From an uncultured Oscillospiraceae bacterium (GTDB lineage: Bacteria; Bacillota; Clostridia; Oscillospirales; Ruminococcaceae): DNA of 64,000 nucleotides. The notes beneath the pieces are model-generated. The model searched no databases and was not told the origin of the DNA. It saw nothing but the letters and a program-made list of their open reading frames with translations. Positions within the stretch are counted from its first letter, which is position 1. Each line of letters begins with the position of its first letter. The stretch lies in assembly GCA_934513685.1 (NCBI GenBank), contig CAKSWY010000002.1, forward strand, positions 57,946 through 121,945. The letters run 5' to 3'. Below are positions 52,278 to 63,929 of the stretch, piece by piece. Position numbers and translations under genes: made by a program.

Positions 52278-52320
52278 CCGGGCGTCGGCCATTCCAATCA
52301 AATAAATGGGGGCATTTGCT

Positions 52321-52908
52321 TTGAAACTTCTGGAAGATCGTATCCGCAAAGATGGCCAGGTGCGGGCCGGCAACGTATTAAAGGTAGACTGCTTTTTGAA
52401 CCACCAGCTGGATGTGCGCCTGCTGGACGCCATCGGCGCAGAGTTTTACCGTCAATTCAAGGATGCCGGCATCAACAAGATCCTGACCATCGAGGCTTCC
52501 GGCATTGCCATTGCCTGCATGACGGCCCGATACTTTGATGTGCCCGTAGTGTTTGCCAAGAAGGCCAAGAGCAAGAATCTGGACGGCGATGTGTACACCT
52601 CCGTGGTGCATTCCTACACCTACGGCCGCGATTACAACATCACTCTGGCCCAGAAATTCCTCGGCCCCGAGGATCGGGTGCTGATTGTGGACGATTTTCT
52701 GGCCGTGGGCAAGGCCATGAGCGGTCTGCTGGATGTGTGCCAGCAGGCTGGCGCCCAGGTGGGCGGCATCGGCATTGCCATTGAGAAGGGCTTCCAGTCC
52801 GGCGGCGCTGCCCTGCGGGCGGCGGGCTATCGGCTGTCCAGTCTGGCCATTGTGGACGCGATGAATGAGGAAACCGGCGAGATCACGTTCCGTCCCCAGG
52901 AGGATTGA
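52321..52908 (+). CDS. xpt: Xanthine phosphoribosyltransferase
   Basis: ~195 aa; [14 protein letters not shown]-terminus, PRPP-binding motif [13 protein letters not shown]. Start at TTG 52321 (RBS GGGGG) or ATG 52306. Confidence 0.85.
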
Positions 52909-53091: not shown

Positions 53092-53718
53092 TCAGGCGAA
53101 CGGATTCTTCCCCTCGTCCACCGGCTCCCGCAGGGCGTGAAGCAGCGGCAGCGGGTTCTGCTTGTACAGCGCATAGCCCAGTCCAAGGGCCGCGCCGAAC
53201 GCACCCCCACCCAAAAAGTCGTGGCCGCCTTCAAACAGCAGCCCCGCCGCCAGCAGGCAGCCGCCCATCCACAGCAGGTAGCGCAGAAGGACCCGTCCTC
53301 TGGCCTCCAGCGCTTCCCGCTTGTGCCGGTTGACCGCCCGGGTGTATTGCAGGGCCTGGCCGTCCAGCCCGTGCAGGCGTTCCAGTGTTTCCCAGCTTTT
53401 TCGGGCGGGCGCGATCATCAGGGGAAATGGGGCCAGATTTTCAAAATTTTCCGTGGCCGCCTGCAGCGTCAGCCGATACAGGCGAACCTCGTCGGGCTGT
53501 TGATTCATTAAGGGGGTCAGCAGATCGACCGCCTCTTGCCAGTTTCCGGCCCGCAGATGGCGCACCGCCCGGTCAACGTCCTGGTCGAAGCGGCGAAGCT
53601 GCTCTTCCTGTGCAGGGTCCGCCACCGGCCAGCCGCAGCAGTCGCACTCCCGCCGCATCCGGTTCCGGTTGTAATGGCAGGCCGGGCAGCCGCATTGTGG
53701 GCACCGCCAATCGCTCAT
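53092..53718 (-). CDS. Zinc-ribbon plus transmembrane protein (last gene of the Ubl/E1/E2/JAB operon)
   Basis: 208 aa; N-terminal CPQCGCPACHY...CDCCGW zinc-ribbon-like cysteine cluster, helical middle, C-terminal hydrophobic segments (LLWMGGCLLAAGLLF...AFGAALGLGYALY). Confidence 0.5.
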   Translation of the reverse strand: MSDWRCPQCGCPACHYNRNRMRRECDCCGWPVADPAQEEQLRRFDQDVDRAVRHLRAGNWQEAVDLLTPLMNQQPDEVRLYRLTLQAATENFENLAPFPLMIAPARKSWETLERLHGLDGQALQYTRAVNRHKREALEARGRVLLRYLLWMGGCLLAAGLLFEGGHDFLGGGAFGAALGLGYALYKQNPLPLLHALREPVDEGKNPFA

Positions 53719-53754: not shown

Positions 53755-54342
53755 TCAGTGCCGGGGCGGCTTTGCGGGCAGCGGCGGCACCACTTTGTTC
53801 CGGGGTGCCGGGTCAGCTGCCGGGGCAGGCTCCGGGCGGTACGGCGCACACAGCACCGGCGACGGCTCCGCCGCCTGCTGGGCATACCCGTCGTCCGCGC
53901 ATTCCGTCCGGTCATCCGCCGCCGGTTCCTCCGGCTCCAGCCAATCCAGAGGCTGCACGGCGGGCAGCTCACTGTGGGCAGTGGCTGCCGCCATCGGGAT
54001 CAGCACACCCAGAATGGCCAGCGTCATCGCCGCCATGGCAAAGCCCGCCGTGCGCAGGCTGGCGTTCACCGCCAAAAGCACCGCCCCCACCAGAATGGTA
54101 AAGGCCTGGGCCGCCCCGGCCAGCGCCGCTGCACCGGCGGCCCGTCGCAGGCCATACCGCCAGCACAACAGGCAGGCGTAAAGCGGCAACGCCAGAGTAA
54201 GCACGGTGCCCACCCCATGCACCAGCCAGCGGGCCGCCGCCATGGCAGGGGCCAGCCAGAAATAAAACAGCTGAGGCAGGGCCATCAAAGCCAGCAGCGC
54301 GGGCAGCACCATCCACCAAAACCGATTCGTGTTCCGCTCCAT
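53755..54342 (-). CDS. Small polytopic membrane protein with Pro/Ala-rich C-terminal tail
   Basis: 195 aa; RBS AGGAGGATG; 4-5 predicted TM helices. Confidence 0.5.
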   Translation of the reverse strand: MERNTNRFWWMVLPALLALMALPQLFYFWLAPAMAAARWLVHGVGTVLTLALPLYACLLCWRYGLRRAAGAAALAGAAQAFTILVGAVLLAVNASLRTAGFAMAAMTLAILGVLIPMAAATAHSELPAVQPLDWLEPEEPAADDRTECADDGYAQQAAEPSPVLCAPYRPEPAPAADPAPRNKVVPPLPAKPPRH

Positions 54343-54373: not shown

Positions 54374-55441
54374 TCATTCCAATCCGGTTCCGTTCGTCCC
54401 ATGGTTCGTGTGCAGCGGCTGGCCGCAGTGGGGGCAAACCGCCGCCTGCGGGCTGACGCTGCCGTGACAGCAGGGGCACTGCCGCAGCCGCCCCGGCAGC
54501 GGCGGCGTACCCGCCGGGCCGCCGGTTTGGGCCATCGTGCCCACCGTCTGCTGCAAAGTAGGCCAGAGCTGGCTCAGCAGCAGTGCCTGCGCCAAAGGTG
54601 CGGCCATCCCGCCGCCGCTTGCCTGCCCGGCGCTGCTGCCCCGGGCAGGCAGGCCCGTCATGGCTTCCGCCAGCGTGCGCCGGTCCAGGTTTCCGCCCCA
54701 GATCCGTTCCAGATGGTCCTTCTCCAGGTCGGTCTGCGTGCGGCCCGCGGCCTCTTTGCCTTCCAGCTCGTGCAGGCGCGCCCAGCCTTCCTCGGGAATG
54801 TTCACGGCCGTCACCGCAAACTGTTCCAGGCTCAGGCCAAACTCTGCCAGCGCCTGGGACAGCGGGCCGCGGGTCTCGGCCCCAATGGCCCCAAGACTTC
54901 GGTTAAACTCCACAATGGTGTGGCGGTTGAGCGCCCCGGCCAGAGTCTGCCGCAAGGGGGCCAGCACCAGCTGGCGCAGGCAGGGCTCCAGATCCTCGTC
55001 CGAGAACACGGCCTGATAGGTGCCCACCATCGTTTCCAGCGTCTGCAGCGGGTCCGCAATGCGGTAGGCCAAGCTGCACGAGGCCAGCGCCTCCATGGTC
55101 AGCCGGTAGCGCCGCTCCTCAAAGGGGATCGGCCCGGTGCCCAGCTGCATGAAGTTCGTTCTCTGGGTGGACACAAAGAACACGGTCACGCTCACCGGTG
55201 CTTCCCCACCGGTCATCAAATTGCGCAGCCGCACGAAGAAGGGGTCCACCCCGGTCATTAATTCGTAGCGCCCGGGCCAGTACGGCCCGACCACCTGCCC
55301 GTTAAGGGCGACAAAGGCCTGGGTTCCGGCCGGCACCAGCAGCACACTGCCGTTTACCACCGTCCGCCCCGGGCCGCAAAGCTCCGGCATCACGCGAATC
55401 AGGCTGCTTCCGCCCGGATCACGAATCACCCGCTGCAGCAT
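54374..55441 (-). CDS. SPFH/band-7 domain protein with C-terminal zinc ribbon
   Basis: 355 aa; RBS AGGAGGTG; SPFH-like core (PVSVTVFFVSTQRTNFMQLGTGPIPFEERRYRLTMEALASCSLAYRIADP); C-terminal CPCCHG...CPHCGQ zinc ribbon. Confidence 0.65.
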   Translation of the reverse strand: MLQRVIRDPGGSSLIRVMPELCGPGRTVVNGSVLLVPAGTQAFVALNGQVVGPYWPGRYELMTGVDPFFVRLRNLMTGGEAPVSVTVFFVSTQRTNFMQLGTGPIPFEERRYRLTMEALASCSLAYRIADPLQTLETMVGTYQAVFSDEDLEPCLRQLVLAPLRQTLAGALNRHTIVEFNRSLGAIGAETRGPLSQALAEFGLSLEQFAVTAVNIPEEGWARLHELEGKEAAGRTQTDLEKDHLERIWGGNLDRRTLAEAMTGLPARGSSAGQASGGGMAAPLAQALLLSQLWPTLQQTVGTMAQTGGPAGTPPLPGRLRQCPCCHGSVSPQAAVCPHCGQPLHTNHGTNGTGLE

Positions 55442-55460: not shown

Positions 55461-56441
55461 TCAGCGGCTCGCCTGTTTCATAAGGGCAACGGCCCTCAGC
55501 GAAGCCACATGGTAAATGTTCCAGCATCCCGGCAGGCCGCGCAAGGCCTCGTGGATCGCCCGGCCCATCTGCGCATCGGTACACGGCGGCTGCATCTGCC
55601 CGTAGGCCATGCCGCCCTGCGCGGCACCGCTGCGCAGATGGCCGGTCAGCTCTGCCAGTGAGCAGACGCTGTGCCCGTGCAGCCGGTAATAGCTGTACGC
55701 CTCGGTGCGGCAGACGGGCAGGCCCTGCCCGGCAAACCCGCTGTGGTCCCGCGAGATCTGCTCGTCCGTCAGGTTGAAATACCGGTAGAGCATCGCGCCT
55801 TTCCCCGGCTTCTCCCAGGTCACATCGCAGTGCACCGGTTCGCCGTTCAGCCAGACCATCGCCCAGCAGTGGCCCTCCGTGCGCCCTCTCCCGAGGATTT
55901 GAACGCAGGCCACCCCGGCCCGGCGCAGGCAGTACAGCAGCAGGGCGTTCTGCCCCTCGCACACGCCCCGTGCGGTCAGCAGCGGCCCCACCAGATTGTG
56001 CTCCTGCTCGCTTCGGGTGTTCTGGTAGCGCAGCTGCCGGGCCAGCCGAATGTAAATGAGTTCTTCCCGCTGCACAAGGCTCAGGGCCGCCGTTCCGGCC
56101 ATCAACGGCAACATTTTCTGCCGGAAGGCCGCCTGCAATGTCTCGATTTCCGCAGGCGTATACAGCATTTGCAGCCGAAGCTTCCCTTCCTGCCCGCCGC
56201 GGTATAAGAAGGTCATCTGCCGCCCGAGGAAGAAGTACTCCGGCCGGTCATGCCGCAGGGCCTTGCAGGCAGCAAAGGCATCGTCGTATGCCCGTTCCCA
56301 CTTTTCCAGCGTCAGCGGAACCTCGGCGCGGTAATCTCCCCCGGCCAGGCGACGGTCCAGCTCATCGTAGAACCGCCTCGCCTGCCCGGGCGGCAGCCGG
56401 TCCCTGTAAAAACAGCGGCCCAGGGCGTGCGGCTCGCTCAT
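55461..56441 (-). CDS. Transglutaminase-like cysteine protease-fold protein
   Basis: 326 aa; RBS GGAAGAGGAGGG; the ATG overlaps the JAB stop (ATGA/TGA coupling). Cys-His-Asp triad context GVCEGQNALLLYCLRRAGV...GHCWAMVWLNG...HCDVTW. Confidence 0.7.
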   Translation of the reverse strand: MSEPHALGRCFYRDRLPPGQARRFYDELDRRLAGGDYRAEVPLTLEKWERAYDDAFAACKALRHDRPEYFFLGRQMTFLYRGGQEGKLRLQMLYTPAEIETLQAAFRQKMLPLMAGTAALSLVQREELIYIRLARQLRYQNTRSEQEHNLVGPLLTARGVCEGQNALLLYCLRRAGVACVQILGRGRTEGHCWAMVWLNGEPVHCDVTWEKPGKGAMLYRYFNLTDEQISRDHSGFAGQGLPVCRTEAYSYYRLHGHSVCSLAELTGHLRSGAAQGGMAYGQMQPPCTDAQMGRAIHEALRGLPGCWNIYHVASLRAVALMKQASR

Positions 56442-56442
56442 G

Positions 56443-57339
56443 TCAGCCCTCCTCTTCCTTCGGCCTGCCCGGAATCGTCAGTGTGACGCGCACTTTGGTG
56501 CAGCGGCGCAGCTTTCCGGTAACACAGCGGACGGTGCCTTTTGCCCCGTCCATGCGCAGGCAGCGGCTGGCCAGCTTCATCAATGCCTCCACCGGGAACT
56601 CCGGCATGGGGTGCTCCGTCTCCGCCGGGTGCGGCGCTTCTTTGGCCGCGGCCTTTGCGGTGCGGCGGCACACGATCACCTGGGCATTCTCAAAGTTTTT
56701 GCCGATGCTGGCCAGCATCTGGCGGCGAATGGGGTCGCACACAAAGATGCACACCGGCGCTTTGGCCGCCCGGGCTTCTCCGCTGCTGCGGTCCGTCCCG
56801 GACCAGAACACGCCCAGATCCGGGTGGGTGTGGCCCTCCAGGCAGTATTCACTGGGCCCGTACTCCAAAAACGGGTCCACCACGCACCCTTGGGCATCCC
56901 GGTTGAAGCGCTTTTCGTCCCGAAGGTACTCGTCCCGGTAATACTCCAGAAAGTCCAGCCCCGGGTTGTTCTCCCCGTTGGGGCCAAGGCCGGAGGCGGA
57001 GCTTCTCGTCCGGTTCATGGTGTGCACCTGCAGAAAGTGGCTGACCACCACGTTCACCCGGCCGTCCTTCTCCAGGAAGAAATGCCCCAGCCCGATGTAT
57101 TTCTGCTCCAAATGGTTCATGGGGGAACGGCGGCCGTAGCTCACCATCATGGTCAGTTCTTCGGCGGCTTCCGGCAGAAAGAACACGTAGTGTCGGCCCT
57201 TGCCGTGGCGCTCTGCCTGAAAGCTGCCGCAGTTCTTCTCAATCACCGCGGCGATCTCCACCGCGCTCAGCACCGGATACGTGCGGGACGGCGTAATGGG
57301 GCGCGGCGGCAACGGCGGGCAGTTCGTTTTCACTTCCAT
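56443..57339 (-). CDS. JAB/JAMM (MPN+) metallo-isopeptidase
   Basis: 298 aa; RBS AAAGGAGAA; JAMM zinc motif EGHTHPDLGVFWSGTD = H-x-H-x7-S-x2-D, with upstream Glu. Confidence 0.8.
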   Translation of the reverse strand: MEVKTNCPPLPPRPITPSRTYPVLSAVEIAAVIEKNCGSFQAERHGKGRHYVFFLPEAAEELTMMVSYGRRSPMNHLEQKYIGLGHFFLEKDGRVNVVVSHFLQVHTMNRTRSSASGLGPNGENNPGLDFLEYYRDEYLRDEKRFNRDAQGCVVDPFLEYGPSEYCLEGHTHPDLGVFWSGTDRSSGEARAAKAPVCIFVCDPIRRQMLASIGKNFENAQVIVCRRTAKAAAKEAPHPAETEHPMPEFPVEALMKLASRCLRMDGAKGTVRCVTGKLRRCTKVRVTLTIPGRPKEEEG

Positions 57340-57380: not shown

Positions 57381-58008
57381 TTAGCTGCGGCGCGGCAGCG
57401 GGGGCGGCGTGCCCGTGCCGGGGACCGCGCGGCGCACCGGAAGCGGCGGCCGCTGCGGGGCCTCCAGCAGCTTGGGCGAAATGGTGGGAAAGCGCCCGCT
57501 CGCCACACCGGCCCGGTGCCAGTCCGCCACATCGCCGTTGGCCATGGAGTCATAGCGGGTCACCGCCGGGTCGTGGATCATATCCTTCACCAGCTTTTCC
57601 GCCACCGTGAGCATCGAGCTGGTATAAATTTTCCATTCGTCAATGCAGGCGGCCCCGCTGCGGAATACGTTGGGGCTGGCCAGCCGCCGCTTTGCCGGGT
57701 AGGCAGCTTTCACGCTTTTCAGCGGATAGCCCAGAAACACCGCCACCTCCGCGCTCATAGAGGAACAGCTCTTGGGGGAAGCGTCGTCCCGGTCGGTGAG
57801 GTAATGGCTGGGGGCGTGCACCGTGATCCGGAAACGAAACTCCTCGCCCGGCTCACAGGCCACCTCCTCCACCGTCACATACCGGGGGTTGAACATACCC
57901 CGCAGAACGTTCCAGTCGTTGCGGATGGCCTCGCGGGATTCCCCGTCCGAAATGGAAACGGGCACGCTGCTGCCCCGCTCGTCCGTATAAGTCGTGCTGT
58001 ATGCCATG
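57381..58008 (-). CDS. Ubiquitin-conjugating enzyme (E2/UBC fold)-like protein
   Basis: ~209 aa from ATG 58008 (RBS AAGGAGGAG). UBC-like core EFRFRITVHAP..YPLKSVKAAYPAKRRLASPNVFRSGAACIDEW aligns to the eukaryotic E2 Y-P-F-K-P-P-K-V-x-F...HPN(V/I)...G-x-(I/V)-C-L-D block, including the catalytic Cys. Confidence 0.7.
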
Positions 58009-58020
58009 CTTCTCCTCCTT

Positions 58021-59279
58021 TTACTCCAAATGCTGCACCCGATGCATCTGCTCCGGGTCGCCCCGCAGGGCAAACACAAGCGTTTCCCGGCTGCCGTTGG
58101 CCTGCGTGCAGAGCACCTTCAGATGCGCGCCCAGCGGGTAGCCCAGCTGAAACAGGGTCCGTTCTTTCATCTCCGGGTCGCTCTCGGGCGAAAATGCATA
58201 AAGCACATCATCCATTGCGAAATCCACGTCGTACCGGGCCGGGCGGCCGACGGCGCGGCAGGCCTCACAGCGCAGATCCTGCAAAAAGGTGCGGCCCTCG
58301 TGCCGCATCACCTTGATAGGCGCGCCGCAGACGTGGCACAGGTCGCTGCGGATGAACCCGGTGTAGGTGCGCTGGTTGTAATTCAGCCAGTGAACCTGCA
58401 GCTCAAAGGCTGCCTGACCCAGCCGGGCGGCGATCTGCTCCAGCGCCTGTCCCAGCGTAAGTTCCAGCACCGTGCCCTCCAGCCAGAGGATCTCCTTCGG
58501 CGGCTGAACCGCACAGCCCGGGCAGCCCCGCTTCGCCTTGGGGTGGGTCACGGTCAGCTCCATATTCGGATAGGCGTAATAGGTCAGGCGCCGGTTCATG
58601 GCCTCTTTCACGCCGATCACCTGCGCGCGGAATTGCTCCGCCGTCAGGTTGGCCGCATGGCTGCTGGCCAGCCCGCTGGTGCGCACCGGCACCGTCTCAC
58701 CGTCCACCGCGCGCAGCTGCGGCCCGCTGCAGGAGGTGCGCACGGCTCCGTTTTCCAGCCAGCGCTCGTCCATCAGGCAGCGCAGGCAGAACTCTCGGCC
58801 GTCCATCATGACACTGCGCGCCATTTCGTCCTGCGTTCCGTCCATAATCACCACCGGGCGGCGCTCCGGCGGCAGCTGCATCCACAGCTCGTTGAACAGG
58901 GCCTTGGCCGCGTAATTGTCCAGGCACAGCACCACCACGTCGTAGTCCGCCAGTGCCTCCGGGCCGATCCTGCACAGGTCCGTGTCCACCCCGTTTGCGG
59001 TGCAGCCCTCTTCCAGAAACGGCTGCACCCGCCGGGCCACGCACCGGGCCTTGTTTTGGCCCACATCCTCCGGCGTGCGCACCAGGCAGCTGTGCTTGGC
59101 GGCATTTTCCAGCGTAAAGGTGTCAAAGTCGAGCAGGTCCAGGCTGCATCCCATTTTCACCAGCGCTTCCGCCACGTTAGACCCCACCGCGCCCGCGCCG
59201 CAAATGAGCACGCGTTTTCCGCCGAACAGCGGCCGATAGGCCGACAGCTTCAACGGATTGTACAGACGATCCTCCATCA
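58021..59279 (-). CDS. ThiF/MoeB-type ubiquitin-activating (E1)-like enzyme with C-terminal Cys-rich domain
   Basis: ~419 aa from ATG 59279 (RBS AGGAGG). Rossmann motif KRVLICGAGAVGSNVAEALVKMG, then LDLLDFDTFTLENAAKH; four C-x-x-C pairs in the C-terminal third. Confidence 0.8.
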
Positions 59280-59312
59280 TTTCCTCCTGTTTTGTTTCCG
59301 TCCTCGGCGACC

Positions 59313-59786
59313 TCAAAGAATGGGCCGCCCGTTGGGGGCAATTCGATGGCCGTTCGGGCAGCGATAACATCCGGCCGTTTCATTCCAGAAAATTTTCTGG
59401 GGCTGCCCGGGCAGGTTCCGCGCCCGGTCGATTGGGCAGCACGGGAACTGATCCGGCCGAATGCCCCGCGGCCCCGCGCCTGCCGCCGGGAGGGTGCGTC
59501 GCACCGCCGGTTCCGACCGCGAGGGCCGGGCGGTTCGCGGGTTCCGGTGGTTGATCGGCTCTTCCCGCCGCGCCGGGCGTACGTTTGCCGGGGCGGCCAG
59601 TCTCGGCCGATTTCCCACAGGCTGCCGAAGCGCCGCCGGGCGGCTCGCGCTGCCTCTCCCCTGCGGCAGAGGCGGCGGCTGTCTGCTTTTGTACGATGGT
59701 TTGCTGCGGCGGTTCAGGGCCATCCAGGCAGCCCCACCGCCCAGCAGCAGAATCGCCCCCGCTGCAATGCAAATCCAGTTCAGCAT
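59313..59786 (-). CDS. Small membrane-anchored protein with Arg/Pro-rich disordered tail
   Basis: 157 aa; good RBS GAGGAAGGA 7 nt upstream of the ATG; N-terminal TM helix MLNWICIAAGAILLLGGGAAWMAL; the rest is low-complexity R/P-rich. High GC makes a spurious ORF possible. Confidence 0.4.
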   Translation of the reverse strand: MLNWICIAAGAILLLGGGAAWMALNRRSKPSYKSRQPPPLPQGRGSASRPAALRQPVGNRPRLAAPANVRPARREEPINHRNPRTARPSRSEPAVRRTLPAAGAGPRGIRPDQFPCCPIDRARNLPGQPQKIFWNETAGCYRCPNGHRIAPNGRPIL

Positions 59787-59828: not shown

Positions 59829-60146
59829 TTAAGCCACGCCGCCGTCGTCCGAAATGGTCAGCACATCGCCGTTCATCAGCCCCATGCCCTCCACCGTCTC
59901 GTTCTCATCGCAGCTTTCCACACCGGTGCGCTTATTCACAAACACCAGCTTGGCCGCGTCCCTCCGGATTCCCAGATCCTGCGCATACGCGTCCAACAGC
60001 TGGCCCATGGTGTTGCCTCCCACCACCGGGACCTTGGCGTAGGTCACGCCGCTGCCCTTGTTCACCAGATCGATCTCCATCATGGTCTGGGTGGTGCTGT
60101 CCTGCATGGTCGCTTCGCTCGCATCAAATTTGTTCCGTTCCGTCAT
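59829..60146 (-). CDS. Ubiquitin-like (beta-grasp) protein with C-terminal ...GG-VA
   Basis: ~105 aa from ATG 60146 (RBS GAAAGGGAG). ~80-aa beta-grasp-sized core ending LTISDDGGVA*; first gene of the operon that also encodes E1, E2 and JAB. Confidence 0.7.
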   Translation of the reverse strand: MTERNKFDASEATMQDSTTQTMMEIDLVNKGSGVTYAKVPVVGGNTMGQLLDAYAQDLGIRRDAAKLVFVNKRTGVESCDENETVEGMGLMNGDVLTISDDGGVA

Positions 60147-60169
60147 GGTTCGTCTCCCTTTCTGCACTC

Positions 60170-60563
60170 ATACTGTGTGTTGTATCCGGATTCCGCAGCT
60201 TCTTGTGAAAGCCTCGTGTCCGGATTTCTTTATGTCAAAACTCTCGCCGCCGGATGCATATTGTCGGATATACGATGCAACTTTTCAAAATTTGCTGCAA
60301 TTGGAGGAATTGACGCGAAACAGCAAAAGCCGCGGTGTCTGCACACCGCGGCTTTTCTGCTTTATTTTATAGGACATATGGTACGATAGGCACGCACAGG
60401 GAAGGCTTTGCTGCATTGGCATTCCCCTCGAGAGGATTTGATTGGTGTTATCGCATTAATTGTTTACGTAATTACTTGCGGAAGCTTGAACGGCGGCCGA
60501 AATGGCAGCATATTAGATTCACATACGATATACTTTCTTTCCTTTGGAGCGTTCAACCTCCAA
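60170..60563. promoter_or_regulatory. AT-rich intergenic region between the Ubl operon and the CRISPR array (Ubl-operon promoter region / CRISPR trailer)
   Basis: ~400 bp, distinctly AT-richer than its surroundings. Four direct CCGGAT/TCGGAT repeats (60185, 60220, 60250, 60275) and a perfect 14-bp hairpin aaaagccgcggtgt-ctgc-acaccgcggctttt at 60325-60356. Confidence 0.45.
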
Positions 60564-62056
60564 GAGTCACCCCTGCGTATACGGGGGAAAAGCCAGCGCC
60601 ATCTGCAACTTCGCAATGGCCGTAGGATCACCCCCGCGCATGCGGGGAAAAGTCTCCGATAAAAACGGTGTTTCCGCCGGACGGGGGATCACCCCCGCGC
60701 ATGCGGGGAAAAGCTTTGACCCAAAGTTGGCCCGGTTGTGTCCTACGGGATCACCCCCGCGCATGCGGGGAAAAGGCCTGAACGACCGAGAAAATGCCCG
60801 CGATGGTGGGATCACCCCCGCGCATGCGGGGAGAAGAGTTTTTAAACGATGCACCGTCAGTCCATGTGGGGATCACCCCCGCGCATGCGGGGAGAAGTGT
60901 GAAAATCGGCCCGGACACCTACCGCAAAAAGGATCACCCCCGCGCATGCGGGGAGAAGTTGGCTTTTTACAATCCGTGTTATAGGGCTTTAGGATCACCC
61001 CCGCGCATGCGGGGAAAAGGGTAAAAGGTGCCGTCGCCGGGCACCAGCCAGGGGATCACCCCTGCGTATGCGGGGAAAAGCAGGCAAGGCCGGGGCCGAC
61101 GGTCACGGTCATGGGATCACCCCCGCGCATGCGGGGAAAAGTACCGATTTCGGCGGCACACGCCAATGTACTCAGGATCACCCCCGCGCATGCGGGGAAA
61201 AGTTTGTCGGCAGCTGCGTAAAGAATTCAACCACGGGATCACCCCCGCGCATGCGGGGAAAAGTGCAGCGCCGACTAAAAAATATAGGCAATGCCAGGAT
61301 CACCCCCGCGCATGCGGGGAAAAGAACATTTTTGCACATAACAGCGTACTTAAATTGGGATCACCCCCGCGCATGCGGGGAAAAGTTGTGCATAATTGTC
61401 CATATGCAGCACATCACAGGATCACCCCCGCGCATGCGGGGAAAAGAAACAGTCCTCAAAACCGACGACCCATCGGTTAGGATCACCCCCGCGCATGCGG
61501 GGAAAAGCAGCGTCCACAGCCCTGCAACAATCATACATAAGGATCACCCCCGCGCATGCGGGGAAAAGGAAATTTGTGCTTGATGGGATGCAAGCGGCGG
61601 GGGATCACCCCCGCGCATGCGGGGAAAAGAACTCGCCCGTCTCCATGTTCTCGACGCCCACAGGATCACCCCCGCGCATGCGGGGAAAAGTGAGTTATAA
61701 TAAAGACGATGAAAGGAGTGATAGGATCACCCCCGCGCATGCGGGGAAAAGACATTGTGAGGTGCGTATGAATTTTTTGAAGTGGGATCACCCCCGCGCA
61801 TGCGGGGAAAAGCATTTTTTGAGAAGGGGGGTGAATTTGTGAGCGGGATCACCCCCGCGCATGCGGGGAAAAGACACTCCCTGACGCAATCAACAACGGC
61901 GTCGAGGGATCACCCCCGCGCATGCGGGGAAAAGCCGGCGCATCTTCCACCCCCGAGGCCCGGAGCGGGATCACCCCCGCGCATGCGGGGAAAAGAAGGC
62001 TGCGATCGTATGTTTGGCCCGTGAGACGGGATCACCCCCGCGCATGCGGGGAAAAG
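60564..62056 (-). CRISPR. CRISPR array, type I-E-like: 25 repeats of 28 nt (GGATCACCCCCGCGCATGCGGGGAAAAG on + strand), 24 spacers of 32-34 nt
   Basis: 61-62 nt periodicity; the repeat has an internal CCCCGC-GCAT-GCGGGG hairpin. The repeat at 60564 is degenerate (gagtcacccctgcgtatacgggggaaaag); variants occur at 61053 and at 60809/60870/60931 (GAGAAG). Orientation is assigned tentatively from the degenerate terminal repeat and the co-oriented cas genes. Confidence 0.9.
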
Positions 62057-62073
62057 ACTAAAAAGATCCCGTA

Positions 62074-62967
62074 TCACCGACTGTATCCGTTGCGTTCCGC
62101 TCCATTTTCGTTTAGTTTCGCATAAACTTTCTGCGTCAAACGGCAGTCGGGCACCGCCCGGTGCTCTACCTTGTCTGCCAGCGCAAAATGCTGCGCCAGT
62201 GCAAGCAGTTTATAACTGGACAGGCCCAGTATTTTTCGCCGTGCAAGAGGAAGGAGATCGATTTTCCGGTTGGCCAAAACCGGTTTCATGTTCCGAATGC
62301 AGGCCATACGCAGAAATTCCAAATCAAATTGCAGGTTGTGTCCCACCAAAGTATCTTTGCCTACAAAGCGCAGGAACGCCTCCAGCGCATCCGCGGCGTC
62401 CATACCGCCTTCCAGTTCTTCCTGTGTGATGCCCGTCAGGCGGGCAATTTCTGCGGGCAACGGCGTTTCCAGCCGCACCAGCGCCGAAAACTCCTCTCCT
62501 GGCTGCCCATCCCGGACCCGGACCGCGCCATACTCCACGATTGCATCCGTTGCCGCATGCAGTCCTGTTGTTTCAAGGTCGATCACGGTATAATCCTGCT
62601 TTCCGGGCGGTCGGGCAGCTCTTTGCGCCATTTTCTGTGCCATCTGATACTTTGCCGCCTTGCTGAATCCCGGTTTCAGCTCCAACGCCTCGACCTGGGG
62701 TTGCGCTTGCGGAAGCGGACGGCGCATCAGCTTAATGCCGTCGTAATCCACCACTTCCCAGTTAGTATTATGGGTGCGGAATTCCATCTTCTGCTCGCCG
62801 GCCGCTGTATAGACCATCGTCGCCTGTCCATTTTTCAGGTACTGGCAGACCCGATCCCAGACCGCATCCCGCACGCGGCTGCTCACGTTCCCCACGTAGA
62901 CGCCGGTGTTGATCTCACACAGCCATTTGGACAGATCTCCCCGCAGGCGCGGCGGGCAGCTGGTCAT
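62074..62967 (-). CDS. cas2: CRISPR-associated Cas2 fused to DnaQ-like 3'-5' exonuclease (type I-E Cas2-DnaQ)
   Basis: N-terminus PPRLRGDLSKWLCEINTGVYVGNVSSRVRD matches E. coli Cas2 [26 protein letters not shown]. C-terminal DEDDh exonuclease motifs (VIDLETTGL, GHNLQFDLEFL, YSR). The true start is probably upstream at a non-ATG codon (~62982), restoring the IVVLT beta-strand. Confidence 0.85.
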   Translation of the reverse strand: MTSCPPRLRGDLSKWLCEINTGVYVGNVSSRVRDAVWDRVCQYLKNGQATMVYTAAGEQKMEFRTHNTNWEVVDYDGIKLMRRPLPQAQPQVEALELKPGFSKAAKYQMAQKMAQRAARPPGKQDYTVIDLETTGLHAATDAIVEYGAVRVRDGQPGEEFSALVRLETPLPAEIARLTGITQEELEGGMDAADALEAFLRFVGKDTLVGHNLQFDLEFLRMACIRNMKPVLANRKIDLLPLARRKILGLSSYKLLALAQHFALADKVEHRAVPDCRLTQKVYAKLNENGAERNGYSR

Positions 62968-62975
62968 CGTCAGAA

Positions 62976-63929
62976 CTACAATGGCTCCTCACCCTCTTCC
63001 CAGGCAGCATAGTTGATGCCGTTGGACACCGTGCCGAGGTTGTTGTCCCAAAGATACACGGCATCCGGTTCTTCCATCTGTTCTCCGTCGCTCAGCAGCA
63101 GCCAGCGAATGTCATGCACCATCCGTTCCAGAATATGGTGCTCCACCATGGCATCCCGCACACGGCGGCGCACAACGGCAGGCAGGTCTTCCGGTGCCTG
63201 CGTTGCAACCTCAAATGCGATGGGAATGGTCACCTCGGCCTTATACAGGTCTGCAATGTCGTACACAAAAGAACACTCATGGCCGACATGCACAAACCCC
63301 AGCCCTGGTGCGCAGCCCAACGCGACAATGACCGCATGCGCCAGCCCATACAGGCACGCATGCCCGGCCGACAGCGCCTGATTGACCAGGTCTCCTAACG
63401 CAAAATCCTCCGGGCGGTACAGCCGTCCACTCCATGGCACGCCGGTTTCTTTGGACGCCTTGCGGTAGACGTTCCTCACACGGCTGCCCTCCCGGCCGCG
63501 TAGCTGCTGCATCGTAAGGTTGGAAACATCTTCTTCAGGGAAACGCAGCTGATACATCTTACGCACCACGTCCAAATGCTTCCGTTGGTTGCTGACAAGT
63601 TCTGCCTGCCGAATCAGCATCCTGGAATGGGTGGTCAGCGGGCGTCCGTGGGCGTAGTAGCGCACGCCGTGCTCTCCCACCCAGACAGCTCCCACGCCGG
63701 TATCGCCCATCAGCTCCATAGCGCGATGGGTCACGCGGGTGCCAGGCCCAAGCAGCAGCACCGAGATGCCCGCCGCCGGGATCTGGACGACGCCTTTTTC
63801 GTCCGTCACGGTAATGGCACCGTCCTGCCGCCCCAGCGTACAGTGTTCCAGATACAGAAACGTCATCCGGTCTTTTACCTGTGGCAGTGCCTGCAAATCA
63901 GGCCGGATCATGCCCGGAAGTTCATCCAT
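62976..63929 (-). CDS. cas1: CRISPR-associated endonuclease Cas1, type I-E
   Basis: 317 aa; closely alignable to E. coli Cas1/YgbT (GTRVTHRAM, VWVGEHGVRYYA, DVVRKMYQLRF, LRGREGSRVR, GFVHVGHECSFVYDIADLYK); RBS GGAGGAA. Confidence 0.92.
   Translation of the reverse strand: MDELPGMIRPDLQALPQVKDRMTFLYLEHCTLGRQDGAITVTDEKGVVQIPAAGISVLLLGPGTRVTHRAMELMGDTGVGAVWVGEHGVRYYAHGRPLTTHSRMLIRQAELVSNQRKHLDVVRKMYQLRFPEEDVSNLTMQQLRGREGSRVRNVYRKASKETGVPWSGRLYRPEDFALGDLVNQALSAGHACLYGLAHAVIVALGCAPGLGFVHVGHECSFVYDIADLYKAEVTIPIAFEVATQAPEDLPAVVRRRVRDAMVEHHILERMVHDIRWLLLSDGEQMEEPDAVYLWDNNLGTVSNGINYAAWEEGEEPL

Follow-up and report, generated by a model that had tools for sequence, protein, structure and literature searches.

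Described conjugation systems and the operon in the window

To our knowledge, the residue that is activated is a C-terminal glycine in all characterised ubiquitin-like (Ubl) modifiers, from ubiquitin to the bacterial proteins BilA and BubA, and alanine is used, as far as is known, only by the CD-NTases of CBASS, which are not Ubls. Specialists regard a terminal glycine as the mark of a Ubl that can be conjugated, and rely on it in searches. The mature end of UFM1 is Val-Gly, where the valine is penultimate to the activated residue; this modifier is made with a Ser-Cys pro-peptide, is matured by cysteine proteases, and uses UBA5 and UFC1. Among the bacterial systems, Bub (6E/DUF6527) includes a DUF6527 serine protease, fusions of the types Ubl-E2, E2-E1, or JAB-E1, and an E1 without the crossover-loop cysteine. 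[quoted passage not shown] Type II CBASS (Cap2/Cap3) has a bacterial E1/E2 and a JAB, and the reactive last residue of its substrates is Gly or Ala, preceded by a residue that varies (PMC10097602).

The window analyzed here, a stretch of 64,000 nucleotides from an uncultured Oscillospiraceae bacterium, contains an operon composed of the following genes, listed from its last gene to its first:

53092..53718, reverse strand: 208-aa Zn-ribbon and membrane protein, the window's last operon gene; conserved in the operon
53755..54342, reverse strand: 195-aa membrane protein; conserved in the operon
54374..55441, reverse strand: SPFH/Band-7 protein with a C-terminal zinc ribbon (Pfam Band_7_1, 1.7e-19); conserved in the operon
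55461..56441, reverse strand: transglutaminase-like (papain-fold) protein (Pfam Transglut_core, 1.4e-7); conserved in the operon
56443..57339, reverse strand: predicted JAMM/JAB metallopeptidase, 298 aa (invariant zinc-site motif and MPN-like model)
57381..58007, reverse strand: predicted UBC-like E2, 208 aa (invariant Asn113 and Cys121)
58021..59280, reverse strand: E1, ThiF-family adenylating enzyme (Pfam ThiF, 1e-20)
59313..59786, reverse strand: membrane protein (157 aa) that has a Zn-ribbon-like CC...CxxC at its C-terminus and a PLPxR motif; retained between the Ubl and E1 genes in about 70 loci
59829..60146, reverse strand: Ubl gene, 105 aa and stop, the operon's first gene (ORF and translation)

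A contig scan with the single E1 of the window found one locus, in an Oscillospiraceae MAG. With an E1 alignment, 73 metagenome loci were fetched, mostly from the human gut, and the loci L001 to L003 were added to them. When all ORFs of these loci were compared by HMM and phmmer, the order of genes was nearly everywhere (about 70 loci) the same: Ubl, TM/Zn-ribbon protein, E1, E2, JAB, transglutaminase-like protein, SPFH/Zn-ribbon protein, membrane protein, and Zn-ribbon membrane protein. The 195-aa membrane protein carried a C-terminal PLPxK/R motif in 35 of 35 orthologues. In most sister lineages, the operon also encodes a HerA-like ATPase, which matched the PADLOC models HerA, DndH, and mad8, and a WHH/colicin-DNase nuclease. 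The Ubl-E1-E2-JAMM operon was common in human-gut metagenomes, and literature searches found no published description of an operon type that combines a Ubl with SPFH, transglutaminase, and HerA proteins. A CRISPR-Cas locus adjoins the operon in the window; between its array and the Ubl gene lie a promoter-like site (60288 to 60260, reverse strand) and a hairpin (60325-60356), both of which are consensus matches only.

The start of E1 was set at MMEDRLY by orthologue alignment. Its invariant features were GxGxxG, Asp121, the crossover-loop cysteine Cys184 in a TSC motif, and two CxxC pairs, and its C-terminal domain contained two further CxxC pairs. In a profile search against the PDB, the nearest solved relatives were TcdA, the NEDD8-E1 UBA3, Cap2, SAE2, and UBA1 (E of 1e-9 to 1e-6), and the only PADLOC matches were 'E1-E2' models of the Cap2 type. 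For the 208-aa protein encoded next to E1, nothing was above threshold in Pfam, NCBIfam, and PADLOC scans; its profile gave 74 weak PDB matches (E of 0.009 to 0.5), and the 60 that were listed were all E2 enzymes. Asn113 and Cys121 were invariant in LASPNVFRSGxACID, where the Cys is eight residues after the Asn, the spacing that UBC enzymes show in their HPN...C motif, and by this motif the protein is a UBC-like E2. Similarly, the 298-aa protein had no match above threshold in Pfam, NCBIfam, or PADLOC (Pfam Prok-JAB was below its cutoff, with E of 0.04 to 0.1), and single-sequence and profile searches against PDB sequences returned nothing meaningful. Its residues Glu78, His170, His172, Ser180, and Asp183 (E...HxHx7Sx2D) were invariant in 32 sequences, and the best folds matching its AlphaFold2 (AF2) model (pLDDT 75.6) were Rpn8/Rpn11, BRCC36, and CSN, all weakly (E about 1e-3, TM 0.3-0.5). 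A zinc site on a predicted MPN-like fold identifies this protein as a JAMM/MPN+ peptidase, in agreement with an earlier reading of the window from its letters alone (hereafter the sequence-only reading), which had named a co-encoded JAB protein. The Ubl-E1-E2-JAMM cascade looks catalytically complete by its motifs.

The Ubl itself had nothing above threshold in Pfam, NCBIfam, and PADLOC scans, and when the Pfam scan was extended to an E of 10, the SUMO-like Rad60-SLD appeared as a sub-threshold match (E=0.09). In its AF2 model, built from a small alignment (pLDDT 76.5), residues 22-100 form a beta-beta-alpha-beta-beta grasp (strands 22-29, 35-42, 67-71, and 95-100; helix 47-58), residues 1-21 are disordered or of low confidence, and residues 103-105 are of low confidence. 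A Foldseek search of the PDB ranked SUMO1 and SUMO2 first (probability 1.0, TM 0.70-0.76 normalised to target), and the ubiquitin of the archaeon Caldiarchaeum was also among the top matches (probability 1.0). The family profile found eukaryotic ubiquitin by sequence, with an E of about 1e-3 to 2e-2 for single ubiquitin and much better scores for polyubiquitin, where domain scores add up. Model and profile place the Ubl among true ubiquitin/SUMO-type beta-grasp proteins, as the sequence-only reading had assumed of its fold.

A sulfur carrier of the ThiS/MoaD type, which would serve a ThiF/MoeB-type enzyme with no protein conjugation, could account for the Pfam ThiF match of E1 and for its sub-cutoff matches to the NCBIfam ThiF/MoeB models. 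However, the NCBIfam scores were far below the curated cut-offs, the structural neighbors of the Ubl were SUMO and ubiquitin instead of ThiS/MoaD, a GG end was not conserved in the family (see below), and the operon included an E2 and a JAMM peptidase and no thiamine or molybdopterin genes. The combination typical of such carriers, i.e., a GG end, a ThiF/MoeB partner, no E2, and cofactor genes as neighbors, was not found here, and a sulfur carrier appears extremely improbable.

Among the described systems, Type II Bil similarly has separate Ubl, E1, E2, and JAB/JAMM genes, an arrangement found here in about 70 loci, and single- or multi-domain Ubls with variable N-terminal parts. The present operon differs from it in gene order (Ubl-TM-E1-E2-JAB instead of Ubl-E2-JAB-E1), in the presence of five to seven additional genes that are conserved (TM/Zn-ribbon, transglutaminase-like, SPFH, the two for membrane proteins, HerA-like, and WHH), and in its host, which is of the Clostridia. 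No Bil-named chain was found among the PDB matches of the E1, E2, and JAB sequences or profiles, in a PDB copy whose Bil content is unconfirmed. In contrast to Bub, the E1 keeps an invariant Cys184 in its crossover loop (T-S-C); the enzymes of the window operon are all separate proteins, no DUF6527 match was found in this operon, and no Bub chain was among the PDB matches of the E1 profile. The likeness to Type II CBASS, which shares a bacterial E1/E2 with a JAB and whose Cap2 ranks with the nearest solved relatives of E1, was confined to the E1 adenylation domain. While CBASS conjugates a nucleotidyltransferase with a fused E1-E2, a beta-grasp Ubl and separate E1 and E2 proteins were found here, and the window operon encoded no CD-NTase or cyclic-nucleotide effector. 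A UBC-type E2 with an xPN...Cys motif is shared with the SUMO and ubiquitin systems. By these comparisons, which for Bil and Bub draw on published descriptions instead of direct sequence comparison with BilA and BubA, the operon is of a bacterial ubiquitination type akin to Bil, Bub, and CBASS that lacks one or more defining features of each.

The C-terminus of the Ubl and its relatives

The Ubl gene includes the following features:

59832..59837, reverse strand: codons of Val104-Ala105, the dipeptide conserved at the C-terminus, proposed as the reactive end (family alignment and register)
59838..59843, reverse strand: codons of Gly102-Gly103 ('GG'), non-conserved positions (family column counts)
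59847..60080, reverse strand: predicted beta-grasp core, residues 23-100 (AF2 model)
60081..60146, reverse strand: codons of the 22-aa acidic N-terminal extension (MTERNKFDASEATMQDSTTQTM), of low pLDDT in the AF2 model
60153..60159, reverse strand: Shine-Dalgarno site AGGGAGA, with a 6-nt spacer to the Ubl ATG (read from the DNA)

Read from the window DNA, the ORF translates into 105 residues, MTERNKFDASEATMQDSTTQTMMEIDL...LTISDDGGVA and a stop, or, in pieces, MTERNKFDASEATMQDSTTQTM-MEIDLVNK...GDVLTISDDGGVA and the stop. The start codon is the ATG at 60144-60146 (reverse strand), and because AGGGAGA lies six nucleotides 5' of it, both this start and the 22-residue extension are well supported. 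Two other starts were considered and rejected: an in-frame GTG upstream (60167), which lies 5' of the Shine-Dalgarno site, and Met22 or Met23, which would leave no extension and neither of which is preceded by a Shine-Dalgarno-like site. Besides this missing support, the N-terminal region was conserved as protein in relatives. On the same strand, the C-terminal codons are those of Gly102 (59841-59843), Gly103 (59838-59840), Val104 (59835-59837), and Ala105 (59832-59834), followed by the stop (59829-59831), so that the GG followed by VA of the sequence-only reading was present as described.

A word-indexed protein search with the Ubl found only eight close relatives, and 107 proteins of the family were identified when 1.84 billion cluster representatives were searched exhaustively with an HMM. 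Sixty-one representatives, picked by eye as full-length single-domain members, were aligned (alignment A3). Val104 was the sole invariant column (61/61), an invariance that is partly a selection effect of the choice by eye. At position 105, Ala was found in 58 and Gly in three of these sequences. Gly102 occurred in 40 of the 61, while position 103 was Gly in only ten, with Lys (12), Ser (8), Thr (6), Asn, Cys, and Ile (4 each), Asp, Arg, and others in the remainder. The GG pair at 102-103 was observed seven times, where 6.6 were expected from independent columns, a chance frequency which suggests that the GG of the window is no more than a coincidence. The end of the protein was exactly at V-A in 35 of the 61 representatives, and the other 26 carried two to seven extra residues.

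An unselected count was also made from 110 scanned family proteins of the word-indexed and HMM searches. V-[A/G] was found at +6/+7 after the beta5 motif GDxLxI in 72 of the 110, among which it formed the last two residues in 44, and six more had V-[A/G] when their tails were inspected. The rest were mostly truncated, frameshifted, or of other architectures, and about a dozen matches with an intact beta5 strand had a different or shorter tail. In the 76 loci (the 73 metagenome loci and L001 to L003), 62 unique Ubl ORFs adjoin E1. V-[A/G] was in register in 49 of their terminal domains, and 47 of the 49 stop directly after it. The most common ending was AGVA (28), followed by GGVA and GVVA (5 each), and GG and GV were each found in six of the operon-linked tails.

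The close relatives of the window Ubl varied at the same position. The protein P0002, which is 95% identical to it and represents a cluster of 99 member sequences, ends in DDGVVA. Both DDGGVA and DDGVVA alleles occur in the window's own clade, with GVVA in L007, L009, and P0002, while a relative of 57% identity ends in DDGGVA-ADVAVV.

These counts identify Val-Ala, or Val-Gly in few members, as the conserved end of the family, and the Gly-Gly of the window as a lineage-specific coincidence. A conserved C-terminal Gly, usually Gly-Gly, as in canonical Ubls was not found in the 61-sequence alignment. The universal Gly of Type II Bil is likewise absent, as 35 of the 61 representatives and 47 of the 49 operon-linked terminal domains end at V-A. 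In contrast to the variable penultimate residue of CBASS substrates, the penultimate Val is invariant here. A penultimate Val is shared with UFM1, and the three representatives with Gly at 105 end in V-G as UFM1 does, while no sequence relationship between the Ubl and UFM1 was detected in the searches run.

The register of the tail was examined against the sequences of ubiquitin and SUMO1. In the HMM alignment, E64-S-T-L67 of ubiquitin pairs with G93-D-V-L96 of the Ubl, and nine residues remain after this point in both proteins (HLVLRLRGG in ubiquitin and TISDDGGVA in the Ubl). Similarly, EDVIEVYQE-QTGG of SUMO1 aligns with GDVLTISDD-GGVA. In this register, which is an ungapped extension from the aligned core and not a structural superposition of the tails, Val104-Ala105 is at the position of Gly75-Gly76 of ubiquitin and of the SUMO GG, and the GG of the window corresponds to Leu73-Arg74 of ubiquitin. 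Hence, unlike ubiquitin and SUMO, which have Gly-Gly and are made as pro-forms, the family has Val-Ala at the equivalent positions, and most of its genes stop there.

The sequence-only reading had taken GG-VA for a pro-form, in which JAB removes Val-Ala and exposes Gly102-Gly103 so that E1 adenylates Gly103. The window protein does have GG two residues from its end, and SUMO2 has an analogous GG-VY pro-form. In Type II Bil, JAB trims up to nine residues after the conserved Gly (PMC10557695). However, neither Gly103 nor Gly102 is a conserved column, GG pairs occur at chance frequency, a common near-identical allele has GV, and no part of the family is more conserved than the dipeptide supposedly discarded. 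A cut after Gly103 would also leave a tail two residues shorter than that of ubiquitin or SUMO. Additionally, Ser, Val, Arg, or Trp at the reactive end of Cap2 substrates abolishes the reaction (PMC10097602), which argues against activation at position 103, where most relatives have residues such as Lys, Ser, Thr, or Ile. The orthologue alignment that had been proposed as a check of the pro-form, with the lack of a conserved GG counting against it, showed that GG is not conserved. A cut after GG is hence very unlikely.

Extended and tandem Ubls and the N-terminal tail

Among the 26 representatives that extend beyond V-A, the first additional residue was Ala in 17 and Gly in six. Since 23 of the 26 extensions begin with Ala or Gly, the reactive residue of these V-A-[A/G] forms might be the one after V-A, by analogy with the BilA of Ensifer. 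The end of that protein was deduced to be V-A-G, with cleavage between this Gly and a following A, from the mutant name V95K, an Ala-Gly remnant, Gly97, and Ala98 (PMC10557695), and it is close to the V-A(-A/G) of the extended Ubl relatives.

The same observation bears on whether something other than activation keeps V-A conserved, such as recognition by JAB or E1 (the activated residue of the extended forms then being the next Ala or Gly), a degron or binding motif, or a role of the Ubl as a non-covalent adaptor. The resemblance of V-A-[A/G] to the Ensifer end would agree with the first of these, and hydrophobic-Ala ends resemble the LAA of the ssrA tag, which is a degron. Some family members also had no V-A or were fused to other domains (P0082, P0096, and P0106). 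However, most members end at V-A, the exposure of another residue would cost conserved ones, and the register equals that of the ubiquitin GG. The operon also always has an E1 and an E2, both with a catalytic Cys, together with a JAMM peptidase, implying covalent chemistry at the C-terminus. Such other roles of V-A are accordingly regarded as unlikely, if less so than a cut after GG.

The family also included head-to-tail repeats encoded in one gene, as in polyubiquitin genes. In a large sister clade with near-identical operons, genes with one (99 aa, L026), two (187 aa, e.g., L024), and three (P0009) repeats were found. The repeats within these di- and tri-Ubls, which are recent duplications, were almost identical, V-A was kept at each junction, and the junction, ...AGVA followed by ADEEAFEIDL..., was exact in 13 unique tandem sequences. 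The tandem Ubls thus look like precursors of the polyubiquitin type with a strain-variable copy number, which are likely to be processed at the bond that follows V-A, or perhaps one residue further on. In contrast, seven diverged two-domain members (P0013, P0021, P0024, P0025, P0027, P0031, and P0058) have lost the motif in the first domain, while six of the seven keep V-A in the last domain. Conservation on the last domain only would be expected if selection acts on the free C-terminus alone. The role of maturase that the sequence-only reading had assigned to JAB is therefore plausible for relatives in which extensions or further repeats follow V-A, but the Ubl of the window does not require it.

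An N-terminal extension was found in 60 of the 61 representatives, with a median length of 23 aa (range 3-36) and a median net charge of -5; Asp and Glu made up 25% of its residues, compared to 14% in the core. The extension of about 22 residues in the window, which had been called atypical for ThiS/MoaD, is thus real and typical of its own family, and ThiS/MoaD is beside the point as a yardstick for a Ubl on the ubiquitin/SUMO side. A hydrophobic-[D/N/E]-x-x-hydrophobic motif (e.g., PIDxAL and IDEML) was present in 44 of the 61 extensions, while it occurred in 14 +/- 3 (maximum 22) when the extensions were shuffled; the window's own tail had no strict motif. Between the Ubl of the window and the 85% identical P0003, nine of 22 residues were identical in the extension, compared to 80 of 83 in the core. 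Lys was found in the extension of only 19 of the 61 representatives, which makes a conserved chain-forming lysine unlikely. By these measures, the acidic tail is a fast-evolving trait of the whole family and not a quirk of one gene, reminiscent of SUMO, which also has a flexible N-terminal tail of about 20 residues in addition to being the best structural match. As in SUMO, it may, at a guess, serve as a docking or regulatory tail.

A proposed mechanism and its implications

The preferred interpretation is that the Ubl is encoded in mature form, with Val-Ala as its functional end, and is activated at Ala105 as the modifier of a hitherto uncharacterised Ubl-E1-E2-JAMM operon family of gut Clostridia (Oscillospiraceae). 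Based on the family alignment and operon content, we consider this probable, though well short of certain. The window Ubl would be translated with no need of trimming. E1 would adenylate the carboxylate of Ala105 and then hold the Ubl as a thioester on the crossover-loop Cys184, from which it would move to Cys121 of E2 and be ligated to target amines. The JAMM peptidase would reverse the conjugates, and in relatives with two to 14 extra residues or a further Ubl repeat it would cut after V-A, as in polyubiquitin precursors. One bacterial experimental precedent for activation at alanine is provided by Cap2, which conjugates CD-NTases whose last residue is Gly or Ala; the enzyme of Enterobacter cloacae naturally has Ala there, although a change from Gly to Ala reduces conjugation (PMC10097602).

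A broader proposal, held more tentatively and with somewhat less than even confidence, is that the operons represent an undescribed ubiquitination family of gut Oscillospiraceae and other Clostridia. Such a family would include a modifier activated and conjugated through a C-terminal Ala instead of Gly, encoded by mono-, di-, or tri-Ubl genes that vary among strains and cut after Val-Ala by a divergent JAMM peptidase, together with a membrane module of SPFH and transglutaminase-like proteins and, in most cases, a HerA-like ATPase and a WHH nuclease, and it would act in defense. The HerA-like ATPase and WHH nuclease of the sister operons, together with the SPFH protein and the CRISPR-Cas neighbor, would point to a role in defense.

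For annotation, the window illustrates that a GG near the C-terminus is no evidence of a pro-form unless it is supported by orthologues. With no above-threshold matches for its Ubl, E2, and JAMM proteins, its frequent occurrence in human-gut metagenomes, and its unusual partners, the operon is a candidate for a new defense or stress system. If the proposed activation is correct, the existence of a Ubl family that invariably ends in Val-Ala would mean that the terminal-Gly rule is not universal for beta-grasp modifiers, and these operons would provide a natural system for asking how the active sites of E1, E2, and JAMM enzymes fit a methyl side chain at P1.

Copy number, paralogues and fusions of the Ubl gene

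Among operons that were otherwise near-identical, the gene for the ubiquitin-like protein (Ubl) was found to vary in copy number, with one, two or three repeats. The repeat unit spans 88 aa, and the copies are almost identical and joined at the junction ...AGVA|ADEEAFEIDL.... The variable-copy Ubl gene has a polyubiquitin-like architecture, here in bacteria. In addition to the loci listed below, it was represented by the Ubl family proteins P0009 and P0010.

Ubl genes of variable copy number in related metagenome loci
L024, 8965-9528
L026, 9229-9528
L040, 8930-9592

Some operons carry, between the genes for the Zn-ribbon membrane protein and the HerA-like ATPase, another Ubl-like paralogue (228 aa). 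Its N-terminal beta-grasp domain lacks the terminal Val-Ala (V-A), and the C-terminal domain behind it is uncharacterised. A PADLOC search returned no match for this paralogue, and a similar architecture was found in the family proteins P0082 and P0096.

Second Ubl-like paralogue, 228 aa
L025, 9231-9917
L045, 10157-10843
L071, 10241-10927

The V-A end was also missing from P0018, where Ubl is fused in frame to the downstream TM/Zn-ribbon protein, and from P0106, where the Ubl domain follows an unrelated N-terminal domain of 160 aa. These two proteins could be either true fusions or artefacts of assembly or frameshift.

Boundaries of the operon and the E1 start

Directly upstream, the Ubl operon of the window is adjoined by a CRISPR array on the same strand, beyond which lie a Cas2 fusion and an ORF taken, from its translation, to be a putative Cas1.

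CRISPR neighbourhood in the window
60564-62057, same strand as the Ubl operon, CRISPR array (61-nt period, about 25 repeats, repeat core GGATCACCCCCGCGCATGCGGGGAAAAG)
62074-62967, Cas2-DnaQ/RNase T exonuclease fusion (Pfam Cas_Cas2CT1978 and RNase_T)
62976-63929, putative Cas1, 317-aa ORF

Within the operon, the longest E1 ORF (58021-59370) overlaps the preceding gene (59313-59786) by 58 nt. With the true start set by orthologue alignment at MMEDRLY (about 59280), the two genes no longer overlap.

At the other end, the last operon gene in the window clade (also L003, L005-L008 and L010) encodes the Zn-ribbon membrane protein, ending at 53092 in the window. Neither the HerA-like ATPase (847 aa) nor the WHH/colicin-DNase nuclease is present in this clade; both follow in most sister loci (for comparison, L001 11931-15120). 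The next ORF in the window (52306-52908, 200 aa) lies on the opposite strand, and its translation looks like a putative xanthine phosphoribosyltransferase.

A proline motif common to operon proteins

Several operon proteins of the window, and members of the same families in loci L001-L076, share a short motif built around proline, [P/A/S]-L-P-x(1-2)-[R/K]; its form PPLPxR resembles a class II SH3 ligand.

Proline motif in the window
59313-59786, TM/Zn-ribbon protein, residue 39
57381-58079, E2, residues 212 and 227 (positions in the 232-aa ORF)
56443-57339, JAB, residue 9
54374-55441, SPFH protein, residue 314
53755-54342, TM195, residue 187

Across the operon loci, the motif was present in 55 of 58 TM/Zn-ribbon proteins, at the C-terminus of E2 (49/51, in two copies) and TM195 (35/35), and in 25 of 28 HerA-like proteins. 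Of 48 JAB proteins, 14 carried it at the N-terminus, and 8 of 37 SPFH proteins did so at the C-terminus. The background was 72 among the 1,331 remaining ORFs of the same loci. The motif suggests that these proteins may share one docking partner inside the system.
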